Shown here: positions 15,483-48,608 of the stretch, in pieces
How the letters are laid out: each line of letters begins with the position of its first letter
Position numbering within the stretch: position 1 is the stretch's first letter
DNA from: Escherichia phage AV112
Sequence record: OR352942.1
DNA: 64,000 nucleotides
Strand: one strand, 5' to 3'
Notes under the pieces: generated by a model
Databases searched by the model: none
What the model saw: only the letters and a program-made list of their open reading frames with translations
What the model was told of the DNA's origin: nothing
Program-made: the position numbers and the translations under genes

Positions 15483-15608
15483 GCCCCGTTTTCGTCGATG
15501 AACTTAATCCAGTCATTTACAGACCATTTAGTTGTATCACCCTTTAGATTAACATTTAAAGTATATAATCCCTGCTTAAAAAGCATTCGTTTGATATTCA
15601 TAATTTCC

Positions 15609-16278: not shown

Positions 16279-16323
16279 TGGATTATATTAGAAATGAGAT
16301 AAAGAAGACCAGGCGGCACCTGG

Positions 16324-16930: not shown

Positions 16931-16932
16931 AA

Positions 16933-17172: not shown

Positions 17173-17262
17173 ACATTGATAAACACTAAACTATATTGCG
17201 AATAAAATTCTGGACCAAAACGAAAAATCATATCATTTATAGTATCCATAGTGTAATTCAAT

Positions 17263-20829: not shown

Positions 20830-20864
20830 GATAAACCCTTACCTTAAATAGATAAGGGTATTTA

Positions 20865-21290: not shown

Positions 21291-21590
21291 ATCAATATCC
21301 TCTATAAAAGTTGCGATGCGTGCGTTTCGCTTTGCGAAGCTGACGTTTAGTTGGTCGAACCGTAAATGGTCGTCCGGAGAAAAAATTTGGTTCAGTTTTA
21401 ATCAACACATACCAATCGTGTTCGCCACTTTTTAATAAACGGTACAATAATTTAACTTGCATAATAATCTCTTCCCATTTCCAAATCAATCATATCGTTT
21501 ACTGTAGGTTCATCATAACACGTTTCTTTGTCGTTGTAAACTGTTTCGACGTCTGGCTCGACAGTTTCCCATCGAGCCGAATACCATGGT

Positions 21591-21926
21591 TTAACCCCGG
21601 AGTTTATTGAGCTCTTCATAATCAATCCAGGATTCTAGCCCTGACGGCAGGTCACATTCAATGTTCCACAGAAGCTCTTCGATGGCTTGTAGGCGATTAT
21701 ATTCTTCAACAGTAATAGTAACCATTGTTTCAGGCTTTTTAACCATCATGTCATTCATCAGAATGTACAGGTCTTCACAAACAGCCGGGTCGTCCCATGT
21801 CCATATTTCAGCATCTCGAACTAATGAAGTCGGAATCGAATTTAAAACTTCAAGCTTAGTAGGAGCGTCAGGGCCGAGAAGAGTTGCTACAAATTTATAC
21901 GCTCTGGCGAAATCAATATCATTCAT
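21591..21926 (-). CDS. Hypothetical protein
   Basis: 111 aa ORF. Confidence 0.45.
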   Translation of the reverse strand: MNDIDFARAYKFVATLLGPDAPTKLEVLNSIPTSLVRDAEIWTWDDPAVCEDLYILMNDMMVKKPETMVTITVEEYNRLQAIEELLWNIECDLPSGLESWIDYEELNKLRG

Positions 21927-22186
21927 TTAAAATATTCTCGCAGTTGGTCGAATCCACCAATGTGACTTCCGTCAGGAGCAAACACTTGAGGCATAGTCAA
22001 TCCGACTTGTGATTCACGTCCAAGCTTAACCAGAAGCTCAGCAATTTTCTCATCATCAAAAACACCTTTTTCTGGCATAACATTAATGAATTCGAATGGC
22101 TGTTTCTTAACAGTCAGTAATCGTTTCGCATTATCGCAATAAATGCATTTATGAATAGTAGAGTCATACCCGTACACTTTAAACAT
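21923..22186 (-). CDS. nrdC: Glutaredoxin NrdC (T4 thioredoxin)
   Basis: Start trimmed to MFKVYGYDSTIHKCIYCDNAKRLL, which is near-identical to recalled T4 NrdC (87 aa). Confidence 0.9.
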   Translation of the reverse strand: MFKVYGYDSTIHKCIYCDNAKRLLTVKKQPFEFINVMPEKGVFDDEKIAELLVKLGRESQVGLTMPQVFAPDGSHIGGFDQLREYFK

Positions 22187-22592
22187 TATTTTTCCTTTCA
22201 TCGATTAAATATGCAACGCCAAATACAATACATGTAATAAAACCTGTGATACAGATAGAAACCAACAACACTGTACCAAAGAACCAAATCAAGTTATCTT
22301 TAGTAGTTTGTTTGATATCCATCTCACGAATTTCTATAGCTATTGTATCACCTTTATTCAGAAGCGTATAAAACGACGGTGATACATGCCTGTCAAAAAC
22401 TCGACCTTGTTCATCTTTATAAACTGCAATAAATTCCAGTTTAGAATATTTTCCTGTAGATTGACCTGAAATTAATTCCACTACCTCCACAGGAATTACT
22501 TTAGTTTCCATGTAAGTATTCTGGCTGTTCCAAATGAATGGAATGATGGCAAAAACTAAAGCTACAATAAAACAACGAAGGCTATATCTCAT
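22179..22592 (-). CDS. Membrane protein
   Basis: 137 aa with N- and C-terminal hydrophobic segments. Confidence 0.5.
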   Translation of the reverse strand: MRYSLRCFIVALVFAIIPFIWNSQNTYMETKVIPVEVVELISGQSTGKYSKLEFIAVYKDEQGRVFDRHVSPSFYTLLNKGDTIAIEIREMDIKQTTKDNLIWFFGTVLLVSICITGFITCIVFGVAYLIDERKNNV

Positions 22593-22897
22593 TATAATGT
22601 TCTCTCAAATTTGTGGAAGCATTTACGGCATTTCAATTTCAAGTTATCAGTGGTCCAGTTAACCAGTTGGACTTGGATAGTTCCACATTCCGGGCATGGA
22701 TGTTTTGCTGCCGATTTGGCAGCATTTTCACGTCGTTCAACCATTTTCATTATTTCGTTCCATGCCGGAGGAACGAACTCTTCTTCACCGTGGATTTTAT
22801 CTCGCTGAACAAATTCAATCTTTGAACTATCGTCAATAAACTTAACCAAGCTGTGATTAGTGCTCATGTCAATATCCTCTAAAAGACGTAGTTTCAT
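22592..22897 (-). CDS. Zinc-ribbon protein
   Basis: 101 aa with CPECG...CRKC. Confidence 0.45.
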   Translation of the reverse strand: MKLRLLEDIDMSTNHSLVKFIDDSSKIEFVQRDKIHGEEEFVPPAWNEIMKMVERRENAAKSAAKHPCPECGTIQVQLVNWTTDNLKLKCRKCFHKFERTL

Positions 22898-23847
22898 TAT
22901 AAAACCTCAATGGCATTTCGTAAACCATCCGCTTTTGCATTCAGAGCTTTTAATGATTTAGTTTGTTCTGCAATCTGGGCTTCAACTTCTTTCAGACGAG
23001 ATTTGAGGTATTCGCGTTCTTCTCTTAAGTTATCAACTTTTTCTGCTTTAGGCTCTTTAATAGGCTTAGGTTTATACGTATTAGGGTTCTTCAGTTTAAT
23101 TAGAATGCGTGAACTGTACAGCATTGAACCATTATCTTCGGTTTCGTCATACATTTCCACTACGTCCATCATCTCCACCATCGTGCAGAGTTTATAAGAC
23201 AACGAACGAATAGTTTTGTTGTGCTTATTAATTTCTTTAGAGTTCATGGTGCCTAGATTACGCGAGTAGTAATAAGGAACCTGGATATCAACTGACAATG
23301 ATGCGTTACCATTGCCAGTTGGTTTGAATACTGCAGTAACCCAATCTTTAACATGAACTTTATTTGTACGGCCATCACCGCCAGTGAATAATTTACGAGA
23401 ATGTTTAAAAAGCATATTCACTTGGTTATTGAATTCACAAGCAAATTTATCAGCAAATTTAGTTTCAGGAATGGTAGATAACCAATCAGCTAAATGAGTC
23501 TTTTTAACATCGTTAATAATAGTAAATTCAACCAAATCAGTTTTAGATGTCACAGATTTAATAAAGCTCGGCTTCATAAAGTTTTTAATGTTATCGCGAG
23601 CTACAGTAGAAGATAATAAACGAGAACGTTTGAACCATTGAAGCAGTGTCCCTAATGAATGAGAATACGCATTCTGAGTATCTTTACAGATATGATTTTC
23701 TTGGCCTGTGTATGTACCAAAATCGCGAAGAATACCGCTTACTACAACTCGGTGTGGAACATCAAATCCTAATGAACCAGAAGCACGTTGGGCATGAACG
23801 TTAGCGATAAGACCTGCAAAATAATCAATGTAATGTGAACGTGTCAT
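22897..23847 (-). CDS. Hypothetical protein with coiled-coil C-terminus (tandem paralog 1 of 3)
   Basis: 316 aa; the C-terminal ~45 residues are heptad-rich (LREEREYLKSRLKEVEAQIAEQTKSLKALNAKADGLRNAIEVL). Confidence 0.55.
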   Translation of the reverse strand: MTRSHYIDYFAGLIANVHAQRASGSLGFDVPHRVVVSGILRDFGTYTGQENHICKDTQNAYSHSLGTLLQWFKRSRLLSSTVARDNIKNFMKPSFIKSVTSKTDLVEFTIINDVKKTHLADWLSTIPETKFADKFACEFNNQVNMLFKHSRKLFTGGDGRTNKVHVKDWVTAVFKPTGNGNASLSVDIQVPYYYSRNLGTMNSKEINKHNKTIRSLSYKLCTMVEMMDVVEMYDETEDNGSMLYSSRILIKLKNPNTYKPKPIKEPKAEKVDNLREEREYLKSRLKEVEAQIAEQTKSLKALNAKADGLRNAIEVL

Positions 23848-23875
23848 AATATTTTCCTCTCGTTAAGATAGAAAG

Positions 23876-23905
23876 ATTATACTCCAACCGTCCTTGGTTG
23901 TAAAC
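23876..23905 (-). promoter_or_regulatory. Sigma70-type early promoter
   Basis: Minus strand reads GTTTAC, an 18-nt spacer, then TATAAT. Confidence 0.5.
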
Positions 23906-23909
23906 TGAT

Positions 23910-24842
23910 TTATGATTTTAATGCATTCATTGCGTTAAAAAGTTTAGAGTACTGCAACTGGAGCTTGGTAACTACTTGTTGAGCATCACGAAGCTTAGCT
24001 TGTGCTTTGTCAAGTTCAACAGACAGTTGATCCACAGTGCCTTTGATTTGATTATAATAGTAATCTTCGGCAGGAAGAAGGCCGTTAGAGATTTCCAGTT
24101 TAGTCGTCGGTGTGCCGTTAAACATAACAGGTTGTGCTGAAGCTGCATTAATCTTACCGATAGTCGGGGCGACAATAATTGACGCTTCGAACGTTGCATT
24201 TTCCTTTTTAAGATTTTGATAGTATTCAGAGTCTTTGTGCCACCATGGCGCAGGAACCTTTTTACCAATAGATACACGAGCCTGGATAGCGATATGGCCC
24301 TTATTCTTGATAACGTCGATAATATTAAGCTCACGAGAATAAATTGCTTTAATCTGGTGAATATTATCACCTAACACTTCCAACGCTTGGTGGAATACAC
24401 GAGCAACGTTATCATTCTTAGGTTTATACGTAAGAGTGAACTCGTTCTCACTGATAACCATGATTTCTAACTTATCGTAAGTATATTTCAAATGTTTCAT
24501 GTTAATTGCTTGAGGACGAATACGAGAAGCAATGGCCATCAGATTGTTAAGGTTATTCCGGAACTGCTTAGCGAAATATTGTCCTTCACCACCAATACAA
24601 AAATTACGAAGTTTCTGTTTGGCTAATAAACGGCTGAACTCACCGTTTTTAATGAACTCTTTAACGGGTGTGTTAGTAACGCATTCAAATTGAGTAAACT
24701 TACGAGAAGTAATCCCATAATATGAACAGATTTCCTCAATCTCTTCAGGAGTCTTTACAGGCATACGGATAGGATTAGGACCTGGGGTATATGCGTTCGA
24801 GGTAAATTCTTTGATAAGTTCTCTACGTGTAATAGAAGCCAT
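23910..24842 (-). CDS. Hypothetical protein with coiled-coil C-terminus (tandem paralog 2 of 3)
   Basis: 310 aa; C-terminal coiled coil (VDQLSVELDKAQAKLRDAQQVVTKLQLQYSKLFNAMNALKS). Confidence 0.55.
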   Translation of the reverse strand: MASITRRELIKEFTSNAYTPGPNPIRMPVKTPEEIEEICSYYGITSRKFTQFECVTNTPVKEFIKNGEFSRLLAKQKLRNFCIGGEGQYFAKQFRNNLNNLMAIASRIRPQAINMKHLKYTYDKLEIMVISENEFTLTYKPKNDNVARVFHQALEVLGDNIHQIKAIYSRELNIIDVIKNKGHIAIQARVSIGKKVPAPWWHKDSEYYQNLKKENATFEASIIVAPTIGKINAASAQPVMFNGTPTTKLEISNGLLPAEDYYYNQIKGTVDQLSVELDKAQAKLRDAQQVVTKLQLQYSKLFNAMNALKS

Positions 24843-24897
24843 TTTATATTCCTCATGTTGAAAAATTTATTATACTCCAACCATCCTTGGTTGTACA

Positions 24898-25893
24898 TCA
24901 TTCCTTAAGAAGTTTTACTACTTGAATAAGATTAGCTCGTTCTGTTTTATTTTTACCGTTTAAGCCTGCTAATCGTGAGATTTCATCGTCAGTCTGTTGA
25001 ATAGTTACATTAAGTTCGTTAATCAAAGCTTCAAAGTATTTGATTTGCTCAGCATGTTTTGATTCAAATTTCTGAACCGGAATAACGTCTTGGTTTAGTT
25101 CATCAATAAGGTCTTTAAGAGCATCTTCTTGATTGATATCATATTCAACTTCTTTTATTTCTTCAACGAGCTCGTCTTTATATCTAACGTCTTTTAGTCC
25201 TGGTGCTGGTCCTGAAATCTCTTCTTTAAGAGTACAAACATATCCAATACGGTATCCAATGCCGTCTCGCTTGATATCAACTTCGTCAATAAATCCACAA
25301 TGTTTAAGACCAGAGCCGATTAAGTCAAAATATCCTTGACGACGTCCTTCAAACGTTACACGAACTACTAAGACAGTTTTACCTGCAACCTTTTGAAGCT
25401 CACATTTATAAAAGTTTGTTGAACCTGAATAACGTGGATGAGTTTTAAAGTTCATCTGACGATCTAGGCCCATTTGTAAGCGTGCTGATACGGCCATAAA
25501 ACGTGTTTGGTTCTCGTTAAGATGAGCAACAATCCATTTCAAAGGCATTTTACACTGTTCACGACCGAACAAATCAGTACGTCCTAGATTACGCAGGATG
25601 TTGTTAGAGTTAATCATCGACAGAACATTAAGTTTATTCAGCGCGCTGAAGATTCCATCAGCCATTGATTTTCCGTAACCTTTACACGCTTTAATAAGCG
25701 CTCGCGGTAGATTAGCATAGATTTCAGACGGCATATGAAAATCAAATTTACTAGTCAGTAATTGATGAACTTGGATAGCAATTTGCTCATAATTAAGTGC
25801 TCTGCGATCATTATGATCTTTAAACCACACTTTAATCTGTGAAGCACATAAACCGTTAATTTCATGTTTTACCGCATCAGATGTAATGCTCAT
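24898..25893 (-). CDS. Hypothetical protein with coiled-coil C-terminus (tandem paralog 3 of 3)
   Basis: 331 aa; C-terminal coiled coil. Confidence 0.55.
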   Translation of the reverse strand: MSITSDAVKHEINGLCASQIKVWFKDHNDRRALNYEQIAIQVHQLLTSKFDFHMPSEIYANLPRALIKACKGYGKSMADGIFSALNKLNVLSMINSNNILRNLGRTDLFGREQCKMPLKWIVAHLNENQTRFMAVSARLQMGLDRQMNFKTHPRYSGSTNFYKCELQKVAGKTVLVVRVTFEGRRQGYFDLIGSGLKHCGFIDEVDIKRDGIGYRIGYVCTLKEEISGPAPGLKDVRYKDELVEEIKEVEYDINQEDALKDLIDELNQDVIPVQKFESKHAEQIKYFEALINELNVTIQQTDDEISRLAGLNGKNKTERANLIQVVKLLKE

Positions 25894-25928
25894 ATCTATT
25901 TCCTCAGATTGAATTGGAACTCAAAACC

Positions 25929-25953
25929 ATTATAACCCGTCCTTGGGTAAAGC
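25929..25953 (-). promoter_or_regulatory. Candidate MotA-dependent middle promoter
   Basis: Minus strand reads cGCTTTA (MotA-box-like), a 13-nt spacer, then TATAAT. Confidence 0.4.
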
Positions 25954-25955
25954 GT

Positions 25956-26483
25956 TTATGCGTGAACCGTCTTTAAACGTTCTTCAAATTTCCGAAGAGT
26001 ACTAATACGTTCTGCTTTCTGTTTTGTATAGTTTGCAATACGTTCTGAAGTGAGAGCGTATCGTTCGTTTACTGTTTCTTTCATGAAGTCAGGGATTTCA
26101 CGAGAAGCTTTAATTTCATCAAACTTATCGAGTACTGCCTGGTCTTCAGCGATTAAATTTTCGTACATCTCGATATCTTTCTTGATGAAGTCGATATCTT
26201 CCTGGGTTACTTTGGATAAACGAGATGCTTTATCCTTTTTGTATTGCTCGTTAGTTTCACGAGACCAGAATAATGTACGTTTTTTGTTAGTGTTTTTGTA
26301 GACTTCCACAATTCCAACTGAATCGATGATAGCAATCCAATTCCAGCGAGATTTGAAAATCTGACCTCCGTCCACGGTAATCTCGTTACCATAAGCAACA
26401 TCATTAAAGAACTTGCTTTGTGCTTCAGATTTAAATTTACCGTCGTTATAATTTACCAGGTTGAAAATATCTTTAGCGTTCAT
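25956..26483 (-). CDS. Hypothetical protein
   Basis: 175 aa ORF. Confidence 0.5.
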   Translation of the reverse strand: MNAKDIFNLVNYNDGKFKSEAQSKFFNDVAYGNEITVDGGQIFKSRWNWIAIIDSVGIVEVYKNTNKKRTLFWSRETNEQYKKDKASRLSKVTQEDIDFIKKDIEMYENLIAEDQAVLDKFDEIKASREIPDFMKETVNERYALTSERIANYTKQKAERISTLRKFEERLKTVHA

Positions 26484-26510
26484 GTTTTACCTCCAGTAGT
26501 TGATAGGTCT

Positions 26511-26539
26511 ATAATAACACAACCATAGACCTTGTAAAC
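26511..26539 (-). promoter_or_regulatory. Sigma70-type early promoter
   Basis: Minus strand reads GTTTAC, a 17-nt spacer, TATTAT, then AGACCTATC. Confidence 0.55.
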
Positions 26540-26541
26540 AA

Positions 26542-26829
26542 CTAAAAGAAACTTTTTTCGGTATTTTTTCCACTGAACCAAACCGACTTCGGGACTTTCT
26601 GTAATTTTTCGGATTTAAGTTTCTCTTCCTGTTCTTTCTTATATGCATCCTTGTCGTACTGGAACAATTCTAAGGCATTCTTTTGTAGACGGTCTAAGGT
26701 AATTAAGGCTTTAGTTTTTCCTTTCAAGGAAGAGTCCTGGCGAACCTCCTCGCTATATTGCATCGTAGAACTAACCATACGATGAGCATACAGTTCGACT
26801 GCGGCTTTAATTTTTTGCATAAAATCCAT
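26542..26829 (-). CDS. Hypothetical protein
   Basis: 95 aa ORF. Confidence 0.45.
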   Translation of the reverse strand: MDFMQKIKAAVELYAHRMVSSTMQYSEEVRQDSSLKGKTKALITLDRLQKNALELFQYDKDAYKKEQEEKLKSEKLQKVPKSVWFSGKNTEKSFF

Positions 26830-26967
26830 AACATATCCTCTTTGATTTGTACACCATTATTTTTAAATATTTCTATGCCCTCAGTAGGTTCCTGGTGTCC
26901 TTCTTTGAGGTAAGCCATATGATTATTCATCTTTATGGCTTTTGTTACCTCAGAACTTCCTATAAGC

Positions 26968-27969
26968 TTATTTCAGTAAAGTAACTTCAGAGATTTCCTC
27001 CCAACCATCTTTATCAGTTGAAATAAAATCTGCTACATAAAGAGCCGTACGTAATGATACATTGCGAAGACGAGATACATTAGCCTTCATCCAGGACAAT
27101 GCTTTATACGTTTCTGCATCTGTCAGACCACGTTTCTGCATCATGTCAGTAGATAATATTACATCTTCAACTCGAACCATAATCTCTTCATTAGAGTGTA
27201 CTCCAAGGTCGAGATACACTGAACGAGATACTAAAGCTTGAAGGTGTGGGGCAAGTTTCGAACCGCGTTCTAACTCTTTATCGATATCAACGTTTGTAAT
27301 GAAAACGATAGTACCTTCAAACTCAAATTCTTTATCAATACCCTTATCATCGAGATAAGATGACGCAGTGCTCCAACAAACTTTGCGTTTATCTCCAGTA
27401 TCTAATGCTGCTTTAAGAAGGTTCAAGATGTCCATATCTGAGAATACGTCAACGTCGTCGATTAAGAGAACGCTGTCTGCATCACGGTTGAGCCAAAGTT
27501 GTTCGTAAAGGCCAATACCGGAGATTTTACCATTAATGCTTTTGTATTTGATGAAACCATTATCATTAGCGTTATTAAGTGCTTTATCCAGAGAATACGT
27601 CTTACCAATACCGGCTGCACCTGAAATAATGAGTGAACGAATTTTGCCATCGATAATGCCATTCGTCATCATGTTCATTACTTTAAAGCGTTTGTTGATA
27701 CGAGTTTTCATATCTTCAGTGCTTTCAACAACTGCAACTGGTGACGTCTCAACTCCTTCCATTACGATGTCTGATTTGAAGACCCATACTCCACGTTCAG
27801 ACCCATCAATCATAACGAAAATTTTACCATCACCTAAGTGGGAACATTCAGGATTAAGCTTTGCTGGGAACCATGTCTTTGTGGCAACATAAGAACCAGA
27901 GATTTCGTTATTACGATAAATACCTTTTTTGATTTGAACGTTGAACATTTTATTCTCCAATTTACTCAT
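26968..27969 (-). CDS. P-loop NTPase (AAA-like ATPase)
   Basis: Walker A IISGAAGIGKT and Walker B VLLIDDVD. Confidence 0.6.
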   Translation of the reverse strand: MSKLENKMFNVQIKKGIYRNNEISGSYVATKTWFPAKLNPECSHLGDGKIFVMIDGSERGVWVFKSDIVMEGVETSPVAVVESTEDMKTRINKRFKVMNMMTNGIIDGKIRSLIISGAAGIGKTYSLDKALNNANDNGFIKYKSINGKISGIGLYEQLWLNRDADSVLLIDDVDVFSDMDILNLLKAALDTGDKRKVCWSTASSYLDDKGIDKEFEFEGTIVFITNVDIDKELERGSKLAPHLQALVSRSVYLDLGVHSNEEIMVRVEDVILSTDMMQKRGLTDAETYKALSWMKANVSRLRNVSLRTALYVADFISTDKDGWEEISEVTLLK

Positions 27970-27986
27970 TTCGTTTCGATAGGTCT

Positions 27987-28015
27987 ATAATAACATGTTT
28001 AAAGCAAAAGTAAAC
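27987..28015 (-). promoter_or_regulatory. Sigma70-type early promoter
   Basis: Minus strand reads GTTTAC, a 17-nt spacer, then TATTAT. Confidence 0.55.
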
Positions 28016-28017
28016 AA

Positions 28018-28236
28018 TTATTTGCGACGAGATTTTTTGGTAAGAGGTTGAAAGAACACTGCTTTACCTGCTGGGGTTAAGGTGACTCGTAATGCATTAC
28101 CGATTCCTAAGGATGCTTTAACTAGACCTTTAGCTTTCAGTTCACCGAATGCTTGACGTTGGTCTGCATCACGAGTGTTAACCATAAGACCTTTATCACC
28201 TGCTTCACGAATCATTTCTAACATTTTGGTTTTCAT
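28018..28236 (-). CDS. Small hypothetical protein
   Basis: Start placed at MKTKMLEMIRE, preceded by AGAGGAGAACAAA-ATG. Confidence 0.45.
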   Translation of the reverse strand: MKTKMLEMIREAGDKGLMVNTRDADQRQAFGELKAKGLVKASLGIGNALRVTLTPAGKAVFFQPLTKKSRRK

Positions 28237-28344
28237 TTTGTTCTCCTCTTGTTTTGATAGGTCTATAATAACATATCCTAAAAGCATGTACACTACTTTT
28301 TAAAAATATTTTAACCCCCTAAAGGGACCCGAAGGTCCCCACAT

Positions 28345-28626
28345 TTACTTATCGCACTTAGCAACATAATTAGGCATATCACAGAATACGGAGCGAGTAA
28401 CTACTCGGCCCTTTGACCATGCTTCAGTTGCTTGTCCGGCTGTGCTATTAATATAGCTTGATCTAATGTTCTCAATACCCTGAGAATGTGATGCATTTAC
28501 CGAACCATTAGAAGACCCAGAAGACTGGTTACCACCAGCTCCTGCGCTACCGCTGGCTGCACCCGTGGTAGCACCAACAGAGAATGCCATCATTACTGCG
28601 AATAAACCAATTACTATTTTTTTCAT
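28345..28626 (-). CDS. Secreted Gly/Ser-rich small protein
   Basis: N-terminal signal peptide MKKIVIGLFAVMMAFSVGA, followed by a Gly/Ser/Asn-rich region. Confidence 0.5.
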   Translation of the reverse strand: MKKIVIGLFAVMMAFSVGATTGAASGSAGAGGNQSSGSSNGSVNASHSQGIENIRSSYINSTAGQATEAWSKGRVVTRSVFCDMPNYVAKCDK

Positions 28627-28657
28627 ATTTACCTCAAGTTAATGGTTATTTATCTAC

Positions 28658-29647
28658 TTATTTATAGTAAGAATTATGATTTTCGAGATAGACTTGTTCA
28701 AGGAAGTCATCCCAGAAACTCATATCTACTTTTTGTTGCATACCGTTCTTGGCAGCTTGTTCTGATGCATGTTCAACTTGGTCAACGATATCTTCTAGGA
28801 ATTCTTGTACAGTTTTAAACGTATGTTTACCAAGCTTAACATCGAGAATAAATGGAGCATCCTGAAGTGGGTAAACCAGGTCGCCGGTTTTATAAATTTC
28901 TAATAGTTGAAGTCCACCACGACATGCATGACTCAATGCTTTCCAGTCAATACCTTCGTTAGCTTCTGCCTTACGAGCACGTTCACCATAGTTCTCTTCC
29001 AGTTTAACCAGGATGGCATTGAACTCTTTATTGGTTAACGTGTCTTGGAATTTACGGTCTAACAGATTATAGAATGTTTGCTTACCTGTTTTCTCGTTTT
29101 CAGTTTCAACCCACGAAGCAAATTCACCTACAGGCAGAACATTCTTCATATGTGATAAACGAATTACTGCACCATTATCAAAGTATTGTCCCCATTCATT
29201 AGAACGTTTAAGGGCTTGACGAAGAACAGCCAGTCGAGAACCCTTGACACCGTATTTAGAAGCTTGTTTACGGACATACCCTAAATAAGATTTCATGTTA
29301 GTGGTATAGAAACGAGACCTGTTATCTTGAATATACTTCCATACATCAGGCAAATCGGATTTAACTACTAAACTTGGTGGAGTGTGAAGCATATCTAATG
29401 CGACGGTTTCGCCATCTGCAGCTAGTTTAAAGAAATATTTGAGACTATACAACTCATGGTCCACGTCGTCTTTTGTGTTCTTAGAAGATGTGTTATTTGT
29501 GTTCTTGCTCATATGTTCTTTAACGTTACCGGTCAAGATATCACGAGCATGAGGGACATAAATTTCTTTAAAATCGACGTCAGATTCAGGAGTAGACGTT
29601 CCATAAAGGTGGCTACCAAAGTAGCCTTTCATAATTGTTTTCATCAT
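28658..29647 (-). CDS. Nucleotidyltransferase-fold protein (Pol-beta superfamily)
   Basis: N-terminal GSHLYGTSTPESDVDF matches the GS-x(10)-DxD active-site signature of minimal NTases and of the OAS/CD-NTase families. Confidence 0.5.
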   Translation of the reverse strand: MMKTIMKGYFGSHLYGTSTPESDVDFKEIYVPHARDILTGNVKEHMSKNTNNTSSKNTKDDVDHELYSLKYFFKLAADGETVALDMLHTPPSLVVKSDLPDVWKYIQDNRSRFYTTNMKSYLGYVRKQASKYGVKGSRLAVLRQALKRSNEWGQYFDNGAVIRLSHMKNVLPVGEFASWVETENEKTGKQTFYNLLDRKFQDTLTNKEFNAILVKLEENYGERARKAEANEGIDWKALSHACRGGLQLLEIYKTGDLVYPLQDAPFILDVKLGKHTFKTVQEFLEDIVDQVEHASEQAAKNGMQQKVDMSFWDDFLEQVYLENHNSYYK

Positions 29648-30117
29648 TTGGCCTTATATTCGAGAGTAGGACAGATTTTTTCTTTACGAGCTTTAAGGTA
29701 TTCACCTATTAATGATTTCTTACGTTCAATAGGCTCAAGACCATTTTTAATTCGTTCTTGGTTTTGTGCAATGAGCTCAATTTCTTTATAATATTTTCTG
29801 TCGTTATATTTGTCTAACAACCAAGACGGACCAATTACCAACCCGGTAGCAATAAAAGCCATGACTGCTACCATTAAAATGCCTACACCAATTGAGGCCG
29901 GAACTAATGTCCATAGACTGCTAAAAACAAAGAATCTAGTTAAAATTTCCTGGCCAATGATTACTACTGCTGCTAAAATAGCAAATCCAATAATTGAAAC
30001 AGACAATACTGGGATTAACGTTTTCCAAAAATAAGCACACAACGTTTTCGGGCGATTCCATGTACTATTGAACGCGGCATAAATTTTAAAGTGCCAAGAG
30101 TTTTCATTGATAATCAT
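29644..30117 (-). CDS. Membrane protein
   Basis: 157 aa with two to three predicted transmembrane helices. Confidence 0.5.
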   Translation of the reverse strand: MIINENSWHFKIYAAFNSTWNRPKTLCAYFWKTLIPVLSVSIIGFAILAAVVIIGQEILTRFFVFSSLWTLVPASIGVGILMVAVMAFIATGLVIGPSWLLDKYNDRKYYKEIELIAQNQERIKNGLEPIERKKSLIGEYLKARKEKICPTLEYKAK

Positions 30118-30126
30118 AATAATTCC

Positions 30127-30657
30127 TTATTTCAAAGTCGGGATAATAGAATCAAGATAAGCTTTAAGAGCAACTGCTTCATCTTTGTCTAATGTAATGA
30201 TATGTTGACGAAGGTCATCAATTTGACGAATAACTACGACATCGCCATCTTCATAAGAAGGATTAACGCCTAAGACCGTTGTAGAGTCAGGGTTGGCCGG
30301 ATTTGTAATAAAAGCATTACGGCATTTAGCCCATTGAAGTTTGGCCTTTTTGGCTGTTTCAGATTCCACGAATTCTTTCACCTTAGTGACGAATGTTTTC
30401 CAATTATTAATAGAAAAACATTCGTCTTCAGTTTCGATATTAACCCCACTATAAAGTCCATGATAAAAACGAACTTGAAGGTCTTCGTCAATGTTAATTA
30501 CAGATGCATGGCCCGGTGGATTGAGTTTCAAAATCTTGTCCAGTTCCATAGGAAGAATAGTAGCAGCATCATCTTCTTGTGTCAGAACATACACATAACC
30601 ACGTTTTTCGATACATAAATCACCAAACAACTCGGTTGTTTCAATTACAGTTTTCAT
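30127..30657 (-). CDS. Hypothetical protein
   Basis: Start placed at MKTVIETTELFGD; the ORF-track start is a TTG codon. Confidence 0.45.
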   Translation of the reverse strand: MKTVIETTELFGDLCIEKRGYVYVLTQEDDAATILPMELDKILKLNPPGHASVINIDEDLQVRFYHGLYSGVNIETEDECFSINNWKTFVTKVKEFVESETAKKAKLQWAKCRNAFITNPANPDSTTVLGVNPSYEDGDVVVIRQIDDLRQHIITLDKDEAVALKAYLDSIIPTLK

Positions 30658-31216
30658 ATTATTCACCAATTAAAGTTTCAACAAAATTCACCAAAGCATT
30701 CTGGCAAGCATCAACCTGATTTTCATAAAAGTCTCCGTTATCATTTACCGCATGATAAGCTACATCATTCAAATCTGAATCGGCTTCACGTAAGTCACGG
30801 ATAAGGTCCATCAATTTATTAGCTTGTTCACGGGTCATTTTACCATACTCGTTTCAATAAGATTCACTATGCCGTTTACCATGTTATAAGTAAACATCGG
30901 ATAATTGTATTGTACTACAACATAAGCGATAAGCAAAAGTTTCATTTTGTTCTCCATTTGTTTTGGTAGGATTACTATATCATAGTCCTACCAAGACGTA
31001 AACTACCGATTGTGTTTTAAATGTTGATAAAGTTCTTCAACTTGTTTAGGGTCCAAAACAATTAAGTCATTTTCTTGGCGAAGATAAATCCATCCCTTAT
31101 CCCCAGGGCCATTTTTACAAAACATCACCACCGTATCATCATCTTCAGCGCTTTCAGGTAAAAGTTCAAGTACACCGTCTTCAGATTTTCCAGTATAATC
31201 GTAAAGCATAATGTCC

Positions 31217-31396
31217 TCACATAATCTCGTTAACATACATTTGTAATTCGGTGTGGGCTTCGGCCATCTTTTTCATAGCTTTGTTAATGTCGATGTCTCC
31301 ATCTTCGCATCCATGAGCATTTTCCCAATCAGATACCGCATTAGCGTACTCTTCAATCAAAAACATTAACTTAGAAATTTTTTCTTTACGTGTCAT
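31217..31396 (-). CDS. Small hypothetical protein
   Basis: Start placed at MTRKEKISKL, preceded by GAGGAGAACGTT-ATG. Confidence 0.4.
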   Translation of the reverse strand: MTRKEKISKLMFLIEEYANAVSDWENAHGCEDGDIDINKAMKKMAEAHTELQMYVNEIM

Positions 31397-31462
31397 AACG
31401 TTCTCCTCTAGTAAGTAAAGACTACTATAACACAACCTGAGGAGAAGTAAACTGCTAAACGC

Positions 31463-31490
31463 AAAAAAGCCCCAACCATAAGGAAGGGGC
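31463..31490 (-). terminator. Rho-independent terminator (minus strand), copy of a recurring hairpin
   Basis: Plus strand reads aaaaaa-GCCCCAACC-ataa-GGAAGGGGC; it lies downstream of rI. Confidence 0.6.
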
Positions 31491-31497
31491 TAGTAAA

Positions 31498-31800
31498 TTA
31501 GATAGATGTAGGCTCTAATTTTATTTTCATGAACTCGGCAAATTGTCTGGCAGTTTTTATGCCTTGTTCATGACATTCAAATGCATCATCACAGGGGCTA
31601 TTTTTGTAATGCTTTGCCATATACTTATAGAATTTTTCAGAATTCTCGACATTTTGAATTTCAAACAAAGTATATACGTTTTTAATCCCTGATTCCATAA
31701 AGTTATCAAAATATGGGTCGGTATACGCAGTACCAACGTTAGGAGTTGTTGCTGCAAAAAACCCCAGCATCGCCATGACAGCTATCGCTCTTAAGGCCAT
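31498..31800 (-). CDS. rI: Lysis-inhibition regulator rI
   Basis: 100 aa with a signal anchor; MALRAIAVMAMLGFF...DPYFDNFMESGIKNVYTLFE resembles recalled T4 rI; it sits adjacent to tk as in T4. Confidence 0.75.
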   Translation of the reverse strand: MALRAIAVMAMLGFFAATTPNVGTAYTDPYFDNFMESGIKNVYTLFEIQNVENSEKFYKYMAKHYKNSPCDDAFECHEQGIKTARQFAEFMKIKLEPTSI

Positions 31801-31812
31801 ATAGGCCTCCTG

Positions 31813-32025
31813 TTAATTTTGGCCAGTATTTATTTTTCGCCTTTGGACGGCCTTAACATCTGTGAGGTATTTTTCCAGCTTGCGCTTGCGTGTATAATCA
31901 GCTTTAGAACCAGTTTGACGGATATCCTCGTTTAAATGAGAAATAGAATGTCCTAATTCTCTTCGGATTTCATCCAATTGGGTTACAGTAAGATTACGAA
32001 GTTGTCTTTCGTTTAATTGCTGCAT
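31813..32025 (-). CDS. Hypothetical protein (rI.-1 position)
   Basis: 70 aa ORF. Confidence 0.4.
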
Positions 32026-32052
32026 ATATACCTCTTGGTTAGATATTAGTAT

Positions 32053-32634
32053 TTATAACAACCCTGTCAAATCATTCCAATGCTTCCGGCATAATGACAC
32101 ATATCTATCAGTATCACCAATTTCAATTTGACTGCCATCTGTAATTGGAAGTCCGTCTTCCGTGACTCTAGCTACCATTGTGGCCTTTTTACCACAGTGA
32201 CAGACACCTTTAAGTTCAACAAGCTTATCAGCAATAGCCATTAACGCTTGAGAACCTTCAAATAGATTACCTTTAAAATCTGTTCGTAGTCCATATGCCA
32301 TTACCGGCACATTGTATACGTCAACAATACGACTAAGTTGATACACCTTTTCAGTAGTTAAGAACTGAGCTTCGTCAACAAATACACAATGAATATCCTT
32401 TTGTGCTGCAGCCCATTTATAGAATTCAAAGATATCCATGTCTTTTGTAATTATATTGGCGTCCTGACGAATACCAATACGAGAGACTATTTCACCTTTT
32501 GAATCACGAGTATCAATAGCCGGTTTAAGAACTAATACACCCATGCCACGTTCTTTATAGTTATGTGCGGCAGTAAGTAATGAAGCAGACTTACCAGCGT
32601 TCATAGCGGCATATGTAAAAATTAAACTAGCCAT
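32053..32634 (-). CDS. tk: Thymidine kinase
   Basis: 193 aa; P-loop AAMNAGKS and a C-terminal Zn-ribbon CHCGKKA...C; collinear with recalled T4 Tk. Confidence 0.93.
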   Translation of the reverse strand: MASLIFTYAAMNAGKSASLLTAAHNYKERGMGVLVLKPAIDTRDSKGEIVSRIGIRQDANIITKDMDIFEFYKWAAAQKDIHCVFVDEAQFLTTEKVYQLSRIVDVYNVPVMAYGLRTDFKGNLFEGSQALMAIADKLVELKGVCHCGKKATMVARVTEDGLPITDGSQIEIGDTDRYVSLCRKHWNDLTGLL

Positions 32635-32635
32635 T

Positions 32636-32824
32636 TTAATCCTTAGTTAAATTTTCTAAATATGTTTTTAAATCATTTTCAGCTTTATCGATAGATTTTA
32701 CTAATTCGTAATATGTTTCGGCATCTCCATATTCAGAAGATAATTCAAAAGACAAATCCTTTTCTAAACTAATAATTTCACCAACTAAAAATAATATTTC
32801 GTTCTTTTGTTCGCGAGTAATCAT
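32636..32824 (-). CDS. Small acidic protein (tk.x paralog)
   Basis: 62 aa; similar to the neighbouring 63-aa ORF. Confidence 0.4.
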   Translation of the reverse strand: MITREQKNEILFLVGEIISLEKDLSFELSSEYGDAETYYELVKSIDKAENDLKTYLENLTKD

Positions 32825-33012
32825 AAGGAATTTATATAATCAATGAGTTCTTGTTCTTTATTATCGAATTCTTTAGAAAGTTCTTCGTACTCGTTTGCAC
32901 TAAAAGGACCGCATTCATTACAAACTTTTTCCAATTCACTATTTTTATCCATAACTTCATGGATAAGAGAAAAGAGTTTGTCTTTTTGTTCTTTACTTAA
33001 ACTCATAACCAT
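32821..33012 (-). CDS. Small acidic protein (tk.x paralog)
   Basis: 63 aa. Confidence 0.4.
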   Translation of the reverse strand: MVMSLSKEQKDKLFSLIHEVMDKNSELEKVCNECGPFSANEYEELSKEFDNKEQELIDYINSL

Positions 33013-33230
33013 GTCACCTTTAAGCAGTATTCTTCTACATGCTGTTTACGACCTTTCTTATCAATAAAGGTATATTCAACGAATGTTCCGATGTAGTCTT
33101 TATCTACATCATGTGGACTATTAATTGGACATTTGGTACGACAAATGCGTTCCCATTGACGAATAATTACTGCCTTATTCTTTGGGTCATATGGATGTGG
33201 ATAATGTATATTCATAATAATGGTTCCCAA
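33003..33230 (-). CDS. Hypothetical protein
   Basis: 75 aa ORF. Confidence 0.4.
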   Translation of the reverse strand: MGTIIMNIHYPHPYDPKNKAVIIRQWERICRTKCPINSPHDVDKDYIGTFVEYTFIDKKGRKQHVEEYCLKVTWL

Positions 33231-33709
33231 TCAACAATCACAATTTCTAGTTTAGTGGAATACGTATCTAAAATCTCTTCGATGACATCCCAGTTTCCAC
33301 CACCGATACCTGCACCAATTCTTGGCATATAAATTACAGGCTTTGTTATCTTATTCTTTCCGAATTCATTTAATTCTATTATACAATTCATTAAAGCATA
33401 GTACTCAAAATTAGGTCCAGGCTCAAACTGTGTATAAAGATTAAAGCAATAAGCTTTATGGGTCTTAAAATATTTTTCATAAACCGAATAAGTCCCGAGT
33501 TTAGACTCGTCTCCGAATTCGGTTTGAAGTTTATCGGCTTCTAAAATTTTTGGATAAGCCTTTGCTAATTGTCCTGCCACACCAGCGCCCATTGTATGAA
33601 AACAATTACACCCATGAGCAATATTATTACCTTTAGAAAACAGGGCGACAATATCGCCCTTGATATAGTTTTTAATCACTTGCTGCAAGTCCTCTAGTAT
33701 AAGAGTCAA
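33212..33709 (-). CDS. Macro-domain protein (ADP-ribose binding/processing)
   Basis: Gly-rich motifs NIAHGCNCFHTMGAGVAGQLAK and IGAGIGGGNW are characteristic of macro domains. Confidence 0.5.
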   Translation of the reverse strand: MTLILEDLQQVIKNYIKGDIVALFSKGNNIAHGCNCFHTMGAGVAGQLAKAYPKILEADKLQTEFGDESKLGTYSVYEKYFKTHKAYCFNLYTQFEPGPNFEYYALMNCIIELNEFGKNKITKPVIYMPRIGAGIGGGNWDVIEEILDTYSTKLEIVIVDWEPLL

Positions 33710-34019
33710 CTAGACGGTCCACCATAGAATTGCATGCTGCCTTATCTTTAGGTTCCGCCACCGAGCATTCTAATATTTGCCATTTTTTATAGTATCTTTT
33801 AATTAAGGTAGACGCCTTGAACCTACTAGTCGCCCCATCTTTTTCTCCGTCTTTATACGCATATAACAATTTTTGTGAAAAATCTACTTTACACTCTTGA
33901 CTTTTACCACAATAATCAGACGCTGTTCTGTTTGTATACTCCGTTACATCAGTATATGTAGTATTAGCAAGAGCGTTAAATGAAACCAAGCCAACTATTA
34001 AAGCCAACATTTTGGTCAT
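33672..34019 (-). CDS. Secreted protein (T4 vs position)
   Basis: 115 aa with signal peptide MTKMLALIVGLVSFNALA; assignment is by position only. Confidence 0.4.
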   Translation of the reverse strand: MTKMLALIVGLVSFNALANTTYTDVTEYTNRTASDYCGKSQECKVDFSQKLLYAYKDGEKDGATSRFKASTLIKRYYKKWQILECSVAEPKDKAACNSMVDRLVDSYTRGLAASD

Positions 34020-34558
34020 TCTTTTATTTCCAGTAGTTTGTTTGATTTAAGGTAATTAGCCTTTTCTAGGACTTCAGAAGCATATTTACTTCCAGCACTT
34101 GTCTTCCATCCCGCATTATATGAGGATATAGCTTTTCTTATATCCCCGTTATGTATATTTAACCAATAAGAAAATTCGATATAAGCCCATCTGGCTGAAT
34201 TAGACCGCTTAGATAGCATTTTCTTAATTTGGGCATCAGTCATATTATAACCAAGCTGGTTAATTCTTGCCCTCATTGTTGGTAGATAATTTTGGAACAT
34301 TCCATACGCATGGTGACCTTTCTTATCTTTAAGATTAATACCGGCAGATGATTCCTGCCATAGTATTGCGGCCATTATGTATCCAAGTCCTTTCTTATGC
34401 ATGTTTTCATGCGTTTTAAATTTTCCATCCTTAGAAAACTGTTCCCCAAACTGATAAGCATAATTCAAGTTATCGAGTTGGACATTACTAAAAGTATGCT
34501 CGGAGCTATGTGCTGATAATGAAAGAGCAAATAGACCAGCGAGTAGTGCTTTTCTCAT
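34016..34558 (-). CDS. Periplasmic lytic transglycosylase-like protein (SLT domain)
   Basis: Signal peptide plus LWQESSAG and GMFQ motifs typical of SLT-family catalytic sites. Confidence 0.55.
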   Translation of the reverse strand: MRKALLAGLFALSLSAHSSEHTFSNVQLDNLNYAYQFGEQFSKDGKFKTHENMHKKGLGYIMAAILWQESSAGINLKDKKGHHAYGMFQNYLPTMRARINQLGYNMTDAQIKKMLSKRSNSARWAYIEFSYWLNIHNGDIRKAISSYNAGWKTSAGSKYASEVLEKANYLKSNKLLEIKE

Positions 34559-34566
34559 GTTTACCT

Positions 34567-35025
34567 CTAGATTTTAATCACTGCTTTAGAAGCTTTTCCT
34601 GGTAGTCGTTTACTGTTAATAATAGCCATTCTGCATTGAAGAGTCTTCATTTTGAACGCTGGATTTTCGCGACAAACTGTAAGTCCTAACCAAAGATTTC
34701 CGTCAGTTATTTCTAAACGGCCTGGGCGATATTCGACACCTTCGACAAAATCTTCATCAACATCTGGACGTGCCGGCATTGATAAAAATTCTGTAACTTC
34801 TTTAACATGATTTTTTACTTTACGAAATAATTCAAAAACGTAGTTCTCATCTATTTCTCTCTGGATGGCACGATCTAAGAGATGTTGAGAATACTTGATA
34901 TGAAAGCCTGGTAGTCCAAGAGACTTTGCAGCATCTTTTATACCGGCATTTATTTTGCGGAACTCCGTTTCAAAGATTCGACGGAGTTTATTACGGCGGA
35001 TAAAAACGTCAGAATTGATAGTCAT
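34567..35025 (-). CDS. regB: Endoribonuclease RegB
   Basis: 152 aa; MTINSDVFIRRNKLRR...YSQHLLDRAIQREIDE...RMAIINSKRLPGKASKAVIK is near-identical to recalled T4 RegB. Confidence 0.88.
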   Translation of the reverse strand: MTINSDVFIRRNKLRRIFETEFRKINAGIKDAAKSLGLPGFHIKYSQHLLDRAIQREIDENYVFELFRKVKNHVKEVTEFLSMPARPDVDEDFVEGVEYRPGRLEITDGNLWLGLTVCRENPAFKMKTLQCRMAIINSKRLPGKASKAVIKI

Positions 35026-35054
35026 TTTTTATTTCTCCTCTAGTTGACAGGTCT

Positions 35055-35083
35055 ATAGTAACACATCTAGAGGAGAAGTAAAC
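35055..35083 (-). promoter_or_regulatory. Sigma70-type early promoter upstream of regB
   Basis: Minus strand reads GTTTAC, a 17-nt spacer, then TACTAT. Confidence 0.5.
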
Positions 35084-35087
35084 TACT

Positions 35088-35303
35088 TTATTGATAAAAT
35101 GGAGTTAAAGCCCAAGATTCTTTAGATACCATATCGGCGAAATGCCTCATCTCTTCGATTTGGCGACGACGCTGGTCAGCATAGTCTTCTTCGCCTTCTT
35201 CCTTACAATCTTCAAGGTCTTCTTCAAGATACTTTAAGTATTCACTACAAATTTTGTTGATCTTTTCTTGAAAGTCCAATAACCCTGTAATAGTAGAAGC
35301 CAT
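35088..35303 (-). CDS. Small acidic protein (vs.3 position)
   Basis: 71 aa ORF. Confidence 0.4.
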   Translation of the reverse strand: MASTITGLLDFQEKINKICSEYLKYLEEDLEDCKEEGEEDYADQRRRQIEEMRHFADMVSKESWALTPFYQ

Positions 35304-35569
35304 TAGTATTTTTCCTCAGGTCGAAATACTGCACGACACGCCCACATGCTGGCTTCTTTTAGATGTTGCTTAGCATACTTAAGAGCCTGCACTGCATCCA
35401 TATCTTCTTTGGTTTGTTGCTCTGATTCATTTTCTTTCAAGATATATGCTTCTTCAATCAGAGCATCAAACATCAATCCAAGACGGACTTCTGCATCTTT
35501 AATAGCGTTCACTTTACTGATTTTATCATCGGTATGCGGCTTGTAGCCTTTGATGTCTTCAATCGACAT
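35303..35569 (-). CDS. Small protein in the T4 vs.4 position (candidate Acb2-like cyclic-nucleotide sponge)
   Basis: 88 aa from MSIEDIKGYKPH, preceded by GAGGAAATTCCTT-ATG; identity is by position only. Confidence 0.35.
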   Translation of the reverse strand: MSIEDIKGYKPHTDDKISKVNAIKDAEVRLGLMFDALIEEAYILKENESEQQTKEDMDAVQALKYAKQHLKEASMWACRAVFRPEEKY

Positions 35570-35783
35570 AAGGAATTTCCTCATCGGTGGCAAGGTCATA
35601 TTCGACCAATTGGATAGGCTCATTAATACCGTATCCGCGTACAGTGATATCGGTTGACGGATATTTTCCAGTAATATCACCAATTCTAAATGATTCAATG
35701 AATGATTGCTCGCCTGAGCAACTAAACCAGGCGGCAAAACATTTTAAAACATCTTCAGACCCTTCTATAATCAATTTAGCCAT
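35559..35783 (-). CDS. Hypothetical protein (vs.5 position)
   Basis: 74 aa ORF. Confidence 0.4.
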   Translation of the reverse strand: MAKLIIEGSEDVLKCFAAWFSCSGEQSFIESFRIGDITGKYPSTDITVRGYGINEPIQLVEYDLATDEEIPYVD

Positions 35784-36145
35784 TATAGGCTCTCAGTAAA
35801 GGTACGAGCGATAACGTCGCGCTGCTGTTCCGGAGTCAGAGAGTTAAAGCGAACTGCATAACCGGATACACGGATGGTCAGCTGTGGATATTTTTCCGGA
35901 TGCTTAACTGCATCTTCCAGAGTTTCACGACGCAGAACGTTAACGTTCAGGTGTTGACCACCTTCAATTTTAACTTTAGGTTGATGTTCAATTTCAATTT
36001 CACGGGCATTCAAACCGTAGAAAATTTCTGGGTCTACAATAGCGTCTTCTTTAAAAGTCTTAGAGACAATAATCCGGGCTTGAGCACCGTCTTCAAAATA
36101 AATAGTGCCTTTATGTACACCTTCAAGAATTTGATATGCTTTCAT
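35783..36145 (-). CDS. Autonomous glycyl-radical cofactor protein (GrcA/YfiD-like)
   Basis: C-terminal 60 residues are essentially identical to recalled E. coli GrcA ([59 protein letters not shown]), including the RVSGY glycyl-radical motif. Confidence 0.8.
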
Positions 36146-36151
36146 ATAACC

Positions 36152-36508
36152 TCAATTAGAAAATAAATTTATCCAAGATTTTTCTTTAATCAAAAATGGG
36201 TCGGAATTAAACGCCATTAAACTTTGGGTGATTAATCCCTTAAATGGTCCATCAATAAATTCCATTTTGAAATGTGGAATACTAGTCATCAACCGTGCAT
36301 TAGGAGCAGTACAAAGAACCTGCTGACCTGCGAACGGACCTTTAGTCAAACGATATCGTTTAGGTTTAAAATGGTAAATCTCGTAATTTTCTACAAGAGC
36401 CCTTTTATTGCATACTGGGCTGTTATAACAATACTCAAAAACTTCAATAGTGGTCATCATTGCATTCCAATCACAAAAAATTGAGGACGAGCAATACCGC
36501 CGATGCAA
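36152..36508 (-). CDS. Hypothetical protein
   Basis: 118 aa ORF. Confidence 0.4.
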   Translation of the reverse strand: MHRRYCSSSIFCDWNAMMTTIEVFEYCYNSPVCNKRALVENYEIYHFKPKRYRLTKGPFAGQQVLCTAPNARLMTSIPHFKMEFIDGPFKGLITQSLMAFNSDPFLIKEKSWINLFSN

Positions 36509-37032
36509 TATTTGCTTTTGCAGCAGTGCTGTATTGCTTTAATATGGACATTGTAAATCTTATCCATATCAGGAGCTTTAATAGGCTCGTCAATTATATA
36601 CAGAATACGAGAAAGCGTTAATCCACGGAATTTAGAACCTTCATTACCAATAAAACTACGGACAGAATCAGTAAATAAACGGAATCGAATATCATCGCTA
36701 GAATAACGTGAAAATTCTTTTTTAATGTTGCCAGCAGAAATTTTAGCATAAGCTGAAGTATTAGAAAGAACAATAACTGTTCCACCATCGAGCAGCCAAT
36801 TAGCGGCAAAATTAGTTACTGCGGTAGATTTACCAGATTGTCTGCCACCGTCTAAACGAAGTGTACAGTACTGCTTGAGTACGTCTTCAAATGGTGGGGC
36901 ACAACCGTTCTTACAAATTTCTTCTACTCTAGCATCAGAATGGTGTGTAAAAGCATTCATCAGGGATAGATAAGGTCCAGTTAAAAATGTTCTCATATTA
37001 TTTCTCTTAAGGTTTGGGCCATTCCATGGCAC
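36457..37032 (-). CDS. P-loop protein
   Basis: Walker A DGGRQSGKST. Confidence 0.45.
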   Translation of the reverse strand: MPWNGPNLKRNNMRTFLTGPYLSLMNAFTHHSDARVEEICKNGCAPPFEDVLKQYCTLRLDGGRQSGKSTAVTNFAANWLLDGGTVIVLSNTSAYAKISAGNIKKEFSRYSSDDIRFRLFTDSVRSFIGNEGSKFRGLTLSRILYIIDEPIKAPDMDKIYNVHIKAIQHCCKSKYCIGGIARPQFFVIGMQ

Positions 37033-37274
37033 ATGTTAGGTCCTTCGATTCGCTATGTAAACCCATTACCGCACTTGGGCTCGACCTTATTACAGGTTGG
37101 CGGGAATCCCTCATAGAATCATGAGGTCCAGGTTGTTCCCATGTTATTTGAATGTAAATATTTTTGCCGTAATACTTATACCAGTGTGGCTTCGTTAAAA
37201 TTTTTTCATCGAGTCATTTTACCTCTCCAAGTAATTATGAATATACTATCACAATTTTAGGAGAAAGTAAACTG

Positions 37275-48511: not shown

Positions 48512-48608
48512 ATTATTAACAAAGGCTCTCAAGCAAGAACCCTTGATGATAGAGGGTATTAATCAGTGCGATATGAGTTAATAATAACAAATAATTCTTA
48601 AAGCATAT

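Follow-up and report, generated by a model that had tools for sequence, protein, structure and literature searches.

A GrcA (Vs.6/Y06I) homologue of Escherichia phage AV112 with a glycyl-radical domain apparently copied from the grcA gene of its host

A gene of Escherichia phage AV112 probably codes for the autonomous glycyl-radical cofactor in its phage form, a spare part for host pyruvate formate-lyase (PFL) cleaved by oxygen, from which we infer a gain in energy and in formate for the phage ribonucleotide reductase NrdD. Judged by its DNA, the C-terminal half of this gene is an almost exact and recent copy of the E. coli gene. The analysis started from a 64,000-nucleotide stretch of the phage genome (sequence record OR352942.1; hereafter the window). 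The identity of the protein, its radical motif, the mosaic structure of the gene and the host origin of its C-terminal half were observed directly, as were its synteny, its distribution and the linkage of such genes to nrdD and nrdG in other phages.

Identification of a grcA-like gene

In the list of open reading frames, a single ORF lay exactly at 35783..36145 on the minus strand; it begins with ATG and runs for 120 codons before its stop. The features of this locus were as follows.

35783..36145, minus strand: grcA-like gene, orthologue of T4 vs.6 / Y06I (ORF; Pfam, NCBIfam and PHROG matches; synteny)
35966..36145, minus strand: codons 1-60, phage-specific N-terminal half, corresponding to the disordered half of YfiD (1-60/67) that binds cleaved PFL (cPFL)
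35786..35965, minus strand: codons 61-120, glycyl-radical domain, protein identical to E. coli GrcA 68-127
35778..35967 (start 35775 or 35778): host-like DNA segment, from megablast to E. coli chromosomes
35858..35872, minus strand: RVSGY, residues 92-96, read from the sequence; the radical Gly95 is codon 35861..35863
36150..36153, minus strand: GAGG ribosome-binding site, 6 nt 5' of the ATG and overlapping the TGA stop of a vs.7-like ORF

The initial annotation had taken this ORF for a phage copy of GrcA (YfiD), and the profile and structure matches bore this out. Pfam Gly_radical (PF01228) was the sole Pfam domain of the 120-aa protein (E=1.9e-18, residues 59-101), NCBIfam TIGR04365, "autonomous glycyl radical cofactor GrcA", aligned residues 18-120 with model positions 23-126 (E=5.9e-47, 159.1 bits), phrog_1209 matched over its full length (1.8e-62, positions 1-120 of 121), and E. 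coli GrcA of known structure (PDB 6OWR) matched with E=1.4e-42. Divergence of the N-terminal half left the TIGR04365 score 11 bits under the curated equivalog cut-off (170), and RefSeq phage records name the gene GrcA despite this sub-cut-off score.

When the protein was aligned with the grcA product of an E. coli chromosome, residues 61-120 were identical to GrcA 68-127 at 60 of 60 positions, a match that, on sequence comparison, is far beyond chance. The C-terminal half had been described beforehand as almost identical to GrcA, which understated the case, the protein being identical and the DNA ~98% so. The RVSGY radical motif lay in this identical segment and was invariant in all ten aligned copies; the radical Gly95 aligned with Gly102 of GrcA and Gly734 of PFL, and the context of the radical glycine was kept. 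The radical domain was also 77-80% identical to the C-terminus of PflB (696-759; phmmer alignment over residues 57-120, E=2.9e-26). Homology of the N-terminal halves was weak but significant, BLASTP of the phage half against E. coli GrcA 1-67 giving 35% identity over 40 aa (E=3e-6). A single-sequence AlphaFold model was uninformative (mean pLDDT 41); for the identical domain, a solved structure is available from E. coli GrcA (6OWR).

Homologues of the protein were found in 1587 of 50,697 phage records, the carriers including T4-like phages of Escherichia, Klebsiella, Salmonella, Erwinia and Morganella, T5-like Demerecviridae and jumbo phages.

The protein resembled E. coli GrcA (YfiD; 6OWR; TIGR04365) in being a stand-alone glycyl-radical domain of ~14 kDa with the RVSGY site, but it was 7 residues shorter and its AT-rich N-terminal half was only ~35% identical; E. 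coli grcA adjoins ung, whereas the phage copy lay in an early-type gene cluster. With the C-terminal domain of PflB (PDB 1H16, 696-759), the part that it is thought to replace, it shared the fold segment and the motif; in PflB this domain is joined to the catalytic barrel, which the phage protein lacks. The phage sequence followed grcA and not pflB (which reads TKEQQQDVITR), with nucleotide identities of 98% to grcA versus 74-79% to pflB-type sequences. The short GrcA2 and GrcA3 proteins (NF008341 and NF038360; 78-80 aa) matched the radical domain (E=1e-27 to 5e-31) but have no N-terminal half, whereas the phage protein has a full-length, diverged one.

Orthology to T4 vs.6 and gene context

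AV112 is a Mosigvirus of the T4-like Tevenvirinae. A 2-kb region around the gene was 100% identical to Escherichia phage AV113, of the same genus, whose record carries the annotation "autonomous glycyl radical cofactor" for this gene. T4 vs.6, the sole GrcA homologue in T4, encodes a protein with 93% amino-acid identity. The gene order was that of T4, regB-vs.3-vs.4-vs.5-vs.6-vs.7-vs.8, the position being between regB and denV. T4 Vs.6 (AF158101, 63557..63919) had the same length of 120 aa, the same position and strand, and the same mosaic of a host-like C-terminal half and a phage-type N-terminal half. The two proteins differed at 8 residues, among them residue 72, which was His in T4 and Arg in both AV112 and E. 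coli; the radical domain of AV112 is in this respect closer to that of the host than T4's is.

Because vs.6 is the only T4 homologue, we equate it with the T4 protein named Y06I. Two "spare part" proteins have been validated, E. coli YfiD and T4 Y06I. The PFL activase (PFL-AE) installs a glycyl radical on each of them, and each forms a complex with oxygen-cleaved PFL in vitro, by which activity is regained (Wagner et al. 2001, as recounted in PMC8683613). YfiD 61-127 adopts the same fold as PFL 693-759; binding of cleaved PFL and efficient radical installation both depend on YfiD 1-60, which is disordered (PMC8683613). The initial identification of the gene is thus correct but already known: it missed that this is the characterised T4 gene vs.6/Y06I, annotated in GenBank.

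The stop codon of the grcA-like gene overlapped the start of the next gene (TAATG), and the gene is part of a tightly packed, co-oriented cluster. A sigma-70 promoter scan around the gene gave 8 matches, compared with 10.8 expected from shuffled sequence, and pattern scans of the window found neither a MotA box nor a sigma-70-like promoter directly 5' of it. The lack of a promoter directly 5' of the gene in these scans is consistent with co-transcription in a minus-strand vs.8-vs.7-vs.6-vs.5 cluster, a putative transcription unit proposed from gene packing. Elsewhere, a T4 middle-promoter-like pattern (MotA box TGCTTNA, spacer, TANNNT) occurred 19 times in the window, compared with 6.5 expected, a count reached in 0 of 100 shuffles; examples lay at 33373..33398, 20422..20447 and 48581..48605, all on the minus strand.

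A mosaic gene with a host-derived C-terminal half

A sharp boundary in the DNA was found at codon 60/61 of the gene, at most a few residues from the point where the structural domains of YfiD meet (residue 60/61). On its N-terminal side, nucleotide identity to E. coli grcA was ~45-55%, with many differences, and GC was 0.34. On its C-terminal side (GGQH to the end, 177 nt), identity was 98.3%, with three differences, all synonymous, and GC was 0.49, compared with 0.37 for the window. In the 66 nt upstream of the host-like segment, identity dropped to 50% (Fisher p=1.5e-16).

Positions 12001..37000 of the window were compared by megablast with 5426 complete E. coli genomes. All 5426 matched at 35775/35778..35967 and nowhere else, with 96-98% identity and always inside grcA; in the same comparison, no host-like DNA was found at other genes that have host counterparts, such as nrdD and nrdG.

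A bacterial comparison set was obtained by a pattern scan requiring a 15-residue peptide and comprised 117 usable grcA genes of at least 120 loci; being limited in number and peptide-based, it may miss donors of divergent phage copies. Among the bacterial grcA genes listed, E. coli was closest to the phage C-terminal half, followed by E. ruysiae (96.0%), E. albertii (94.4%) and Citrobacter (91-93%), and the median over the 117 genes was 84.7% nucleotide identity. Synonymous divergence (dS) of this half from E. coli was 0.07 for the window and 0.047 for T4, figures with few substitutions behind them; both lay below the dS of E. coli to E. ruysiae (0.095) and to E. albertii (0.174).

Between the window and T4, the N-terminal half gave dN 0.069 and dS 0.345 (dN/dS ~0.2), indicating purifying selection, and it was conserved among phage copies in the alignment. 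In the C-terminal half, dN was ~0, and dS between the window and T4 was 0.122. The simplest reading of these sequences is that host sequence displaced the radical-domain half of an old phage homologue.

Three observations on the bacterial set are recorded here. Full-length grcA occurred on one record labelled as a plasmid, "plasmid unnamed4" of Klebsiella sp. WOUb02 (275 kb; L037, match 6384-6428). A contig labelled "Vagococcus sp. WN89Y" (L014), a Firmicute name, carried a typical enterobacterial grcA and is likely to be a contaminated or mislabelled assembly. The same is likely for "Salmonella enterica strain s1" (L061), whose grcA was of the Klebsiella/Enterobacter type, unlike that of S. 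enterica arizonae (L085).

Probable recent or repeated replacement

Nucleotide identity between the window and T4 was ~79% in the surrounding region, 89% in the N-terminal half of the gene and 96.6% in its C-terminal half. Over 35298..37100 of the window, compared with 522-2347 of the T4 locus (L003), the C-terminal half of grcA was by far the stretch best conserved with T4; the neighbouring vs.5-like and vs.7/vs.8-like genes differed in length.

Eight T-even-type copies (the window, T4 and six IMG/VR contigs) had 0-3 private changes each relative to E. coli in the first 165 nt of the C-terminal half. The T-even copies shared phage-specific changes only in the last three codons (positions 171-177 of the C-terminal part). 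For the six additional contigs, the best donor among the bacterial grcA genes listed was again E. coli (96.6-98.9%).

Copies in Klebsiella phages of the genus Jiaodavirus had a T4-like N-terminal half joined to a C-terminal half that was 92.7% and 94.4% identical to K. pneumoniae, versus 83% to E. coli, and that carried the Klebsiella-type residues LLDAVEH (L004, 601-963, and L155, 4001-4356, compared with K. pneumoniae ATCC 13883, L092). This Klebsiella-like half implies that host-to-phage replacement happened at least twice. For the copies in Slopekvirus, Gelderlandvirus-like phages, Winklervirus (Erwinia), Gualtarvirus (Morganella) and Krischvirus, and likewise for the T5-like, Cronobacter, Aeromonas and jumbo-phage copies, no close bacterial donor was found among the 117 bacterial grcA genes listed (at most 84% nucleotide identity). 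With no close donor in these other groups, the claim that the gene tracks its host is limited to two events.

An alternative is a single old capture in the T-even ancestor, followed by slow evolution; the last-three-codon changes common to the T-even copies fit such common descent (or phage-phage recombination). We consider it unlikely. The dS of the C-terminal part to E. coli, 0.05-0.07, is smaller than that separating E. coli from E. ruysiae or E. albertii; the C-terminal part is more similar between the window and T4 than either the N-terminal part or the surroundings; the few private changes of each copy relative to E. coli in the 165-nt core form a star-like pattern; and the Jiaodavirus copies carry a Klebsiella-type half instead of the E. 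coli type. Recent or repeated replacement of the radical-domain half is therefore preferred. Within the E. coli phages, the sequences would fit either independent conversions or one event spread by phage-phage recombination, which they do not tell apart.

One of the Jiaodavirus-like copies (L155, IMGVR_UViG_2974754850_000001, ~4001-4356) was frameshifted between its N- and C-terminal halves and is either a pseudogene or the product of a sequencing error. The Slopekvirus copies (L142-L148 and L005) occurred as two protein variants mirroring host types, one with LEDAVKH, the E. coli form, and one with LLDAVEH, the Klebsiella/Enterobacter form; at the DNA level they were at most ~83% identical to the bacterial grcA genes listed, and they could represent older replacements or convergent matching.

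The probable target of the phage protein

The phage also encodes an anaerobic ribonucleotide reductase (RNR) and its activase, as the initial annotation had noted for 17263..19547, and profile matches confirmed both genes.

17263..17733, minus strand: nrdG, anaerobic RNR activase (TIGR02491, 198 bits versus a cut-off of 126)
17730..19547, minus strand: nrdD, class III (glycyl-radical, formate-dependent) RNR (NF006732, 897 bits versus a cut-off of 657), with C-terminal RRTCGYLGNP

A 273-aa ORF at 19538..20359 (minus strand) overlapped the start of nrdD by 10 nt. In the AV113 record, the features that fall under the match to the window's NrdD include a "homing endonuclease", and in some T4 relatives nrdD is split into two pieces around such elements.

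It had been proposed that a spare glycyl-radical domain could rescue either NrdD or host PFL. The part concerning PFL was supported by the identity to GrcA, by the 77-80% identity to PflB and by the biochemistry of Y06I. The part concerning NrdD was not, BLASTP against the NrdD of the window finding no similarity (best E=8.3, away from the NrdD glycyl site).

The protein might modulate or inhibit host fermentation instead of repairing it: it could occupy the activase PflA, or use its divergent N-terminal half to bind PflB, intact or cleaved, so that pyruvate or S-adenosylmethionine (SAM) would be redirected during infection. In YfiD, cPFL binding and activation efficiency are governed by the N-terminal half; that of the phage protein has strongly diverged from the host's (35%) and is still conserved, under purifying selection, among phages, as such a role would allow. 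We nevertheless regard this as improbable, since what is reported of the T4 orthologue is reconstitution of PFL activity and not a block (as recounted in PMC8683613), and since an exact, host-identical radical domain suits functional replacement and would not be needed by a decoy.

Still less probable is a spare part for phage NrdD, one that would take the place of the C-terminus lost when oxygen cleaves NrdD at Gly580 and would be re-radicalised by phage NrdG. Both nrdD and nrdG are encoded by the phage, in several jumbo phages a grcA-like gene lies between or beside them, and spare parts for other glycyl radical enzymes have been speculated upon (PMC8683613). Against these points, BLASTP detects no similarity of the protein to the NrdD of its own phage, its domain has neither the Zn-ribbon nor the RxCGY context found in NrdD and is of the PFL type, identical to that of host GrcA, and the biochemistry reported for Y06I concerns PFL and PFL-AE (as recounted in PMC8683613).

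Linkage to anaerobic ribonucleotide reductase and a proposed link to formate

In jumbo phages, grcA-like genes were found next to the anaerobic RNR genes. The gene order was nrdD-grcA-nrdG in Salmonella phage 7t3 and nrdD-nrdG-grcA in Aeromonas phage phiWae14, and in four IMG/VR contigs (L156-L158, 346-357 kb, and L172, 235 kb) grcA lay within 1-3 kb of nrdD and nrdG. Two unrelated jumbo-phage groups thus carry the gene inside their anaerobic RNR operon. The grcA-like genes in nrdD-nrdG context were located as follows.

L006: 1495-1857
L010: 1501-1878
L156, L157, L158 and L172: ~4001-4350

In T4-like and T5-like genomes, grcA was not beside nrdD and nrdG (18 kb apart in AV112). NrdD occurred in 2925 phage records. 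Among the matches listed, GrcA and NrdD were found in the same record for the window/AV113, T4, phiWae14 and the T5-like phage HdH2, and both occurred in the Klebsiella T4-like phages as a group; this co-occurrence was read from sampled records.

PFL is the formate-producing enzyme. Class III RNR, including T4 NrdD, draws its reducing equivalents from formate (PMC4493059). The genomic association of grcA with nrdD and nrdG would be better explained by formate supply than by repair of NrdD. Neither the formate-NrdD link nor a host-tracking mosaic was found stated in the literature searched, although the near-identity to the host at the protein level may have been noted in the 2001 paper or in the T4 genome review; nor was an infection phenotype of the gene found there for any phage.

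Authenticity of the host-identical half

T-even phages degrade and recombine host DNA, and the segment has a host-like GC (0.49 versus 0.37 for the window) and is 98% identical to E. coli; a functionless accidental pick-up or an assembly or contamination artefact is nonetheless hardly credible, as the T4 reference genome and hundreds of phages sequenced independently of one another share this in-frame mosaic, the reading frame is kept across the junctions, the gene has its own ribosome-binding site and translational coupling, dN in the C-terminal half is ~0, and Klebsiella phages carry a parallel Klebsiella-derived version. Contamination or artefact was rejected on the occurrence of the mosaic in T4 and in these hundreds of isolates.

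Proposed mechanism

We propose that oxygen would cleave host PflB at its radical glycine and that the small phage protein would dock on the cleaved enzyme, its C-terminal 60 residues taking the place of the lost glycyl-radical domain. Host PflA would then install a new radical on Gly95, and PFL activity would return. Because the radical domain is a recent DNA copy of host grcA, it would be an exact fit for host PflB and PflA. The N-terminal half, the part that binds cPFL in YfiD, is on this reading an old, phage-specific and selectively maintained variant; as it matters for cPFL binding in YfiD and diverges here, the phage protein could differ from YfiD in affinity or partner. During infection in a gut with low or fluctuating oxygen, the phage would keep up PFL flux and with it the supply of acetyl-CoA/ATP and formate. 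The formate would reduce phage NrdD, and the dNTP supply for phage DNA synthesis would be protected. Activation by PFL-AE and rescue of cleaved PFL are reported in vitro for the T4 orthologue (Wagner et al. 2001, as recounted in PMC8683613) and are expected of the AV112 protein by orthology; a benefit in vivo and the link from formate to NrdD are our own inference. The host already makes GrcA, and the need for a second copy would be understandable only if host synthesis ceased once infection had begun.

More tentatively, and with less than even confidence, the chimera may be kept by selection, its radical half being overwritten by the grcA of the current host (E. coli-type in Tequatro- and Mosigviruses, Klebsiella-type in Jiaodaviruses) and its N-terminal half being retained. 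Such a protein would fit PflB and PflA exactly and would secure formate for NrdD under oxygen, and the nrdD-grcA-nrdG operons of jumbo phages could be the ancestral or explicit form of the arrangement.

Significance

The "spare part" identification itself matters little, since T4 Y06I/Vs.6 has been a textbook case since 2001 and is routinely annotated. The mosaic origin of the gene and its link to nrdD-nrdG and formate are modest additions beyond the known gene. The gene offers an unusually clean case of host-to-phage replacement inside a gene, with its breakpoint at a domain boundary and an independent parallel in Klebsiella phages, and the mosaic may serve as a natural experiment on which half of GrcA sets partner specificity. 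The location of grcA in nrdD-nrdG operons of jumbo phages, together with the formate dependence of NrdD, would provide a testable reason for the presence of this gene in phages of facultative anaerobes.
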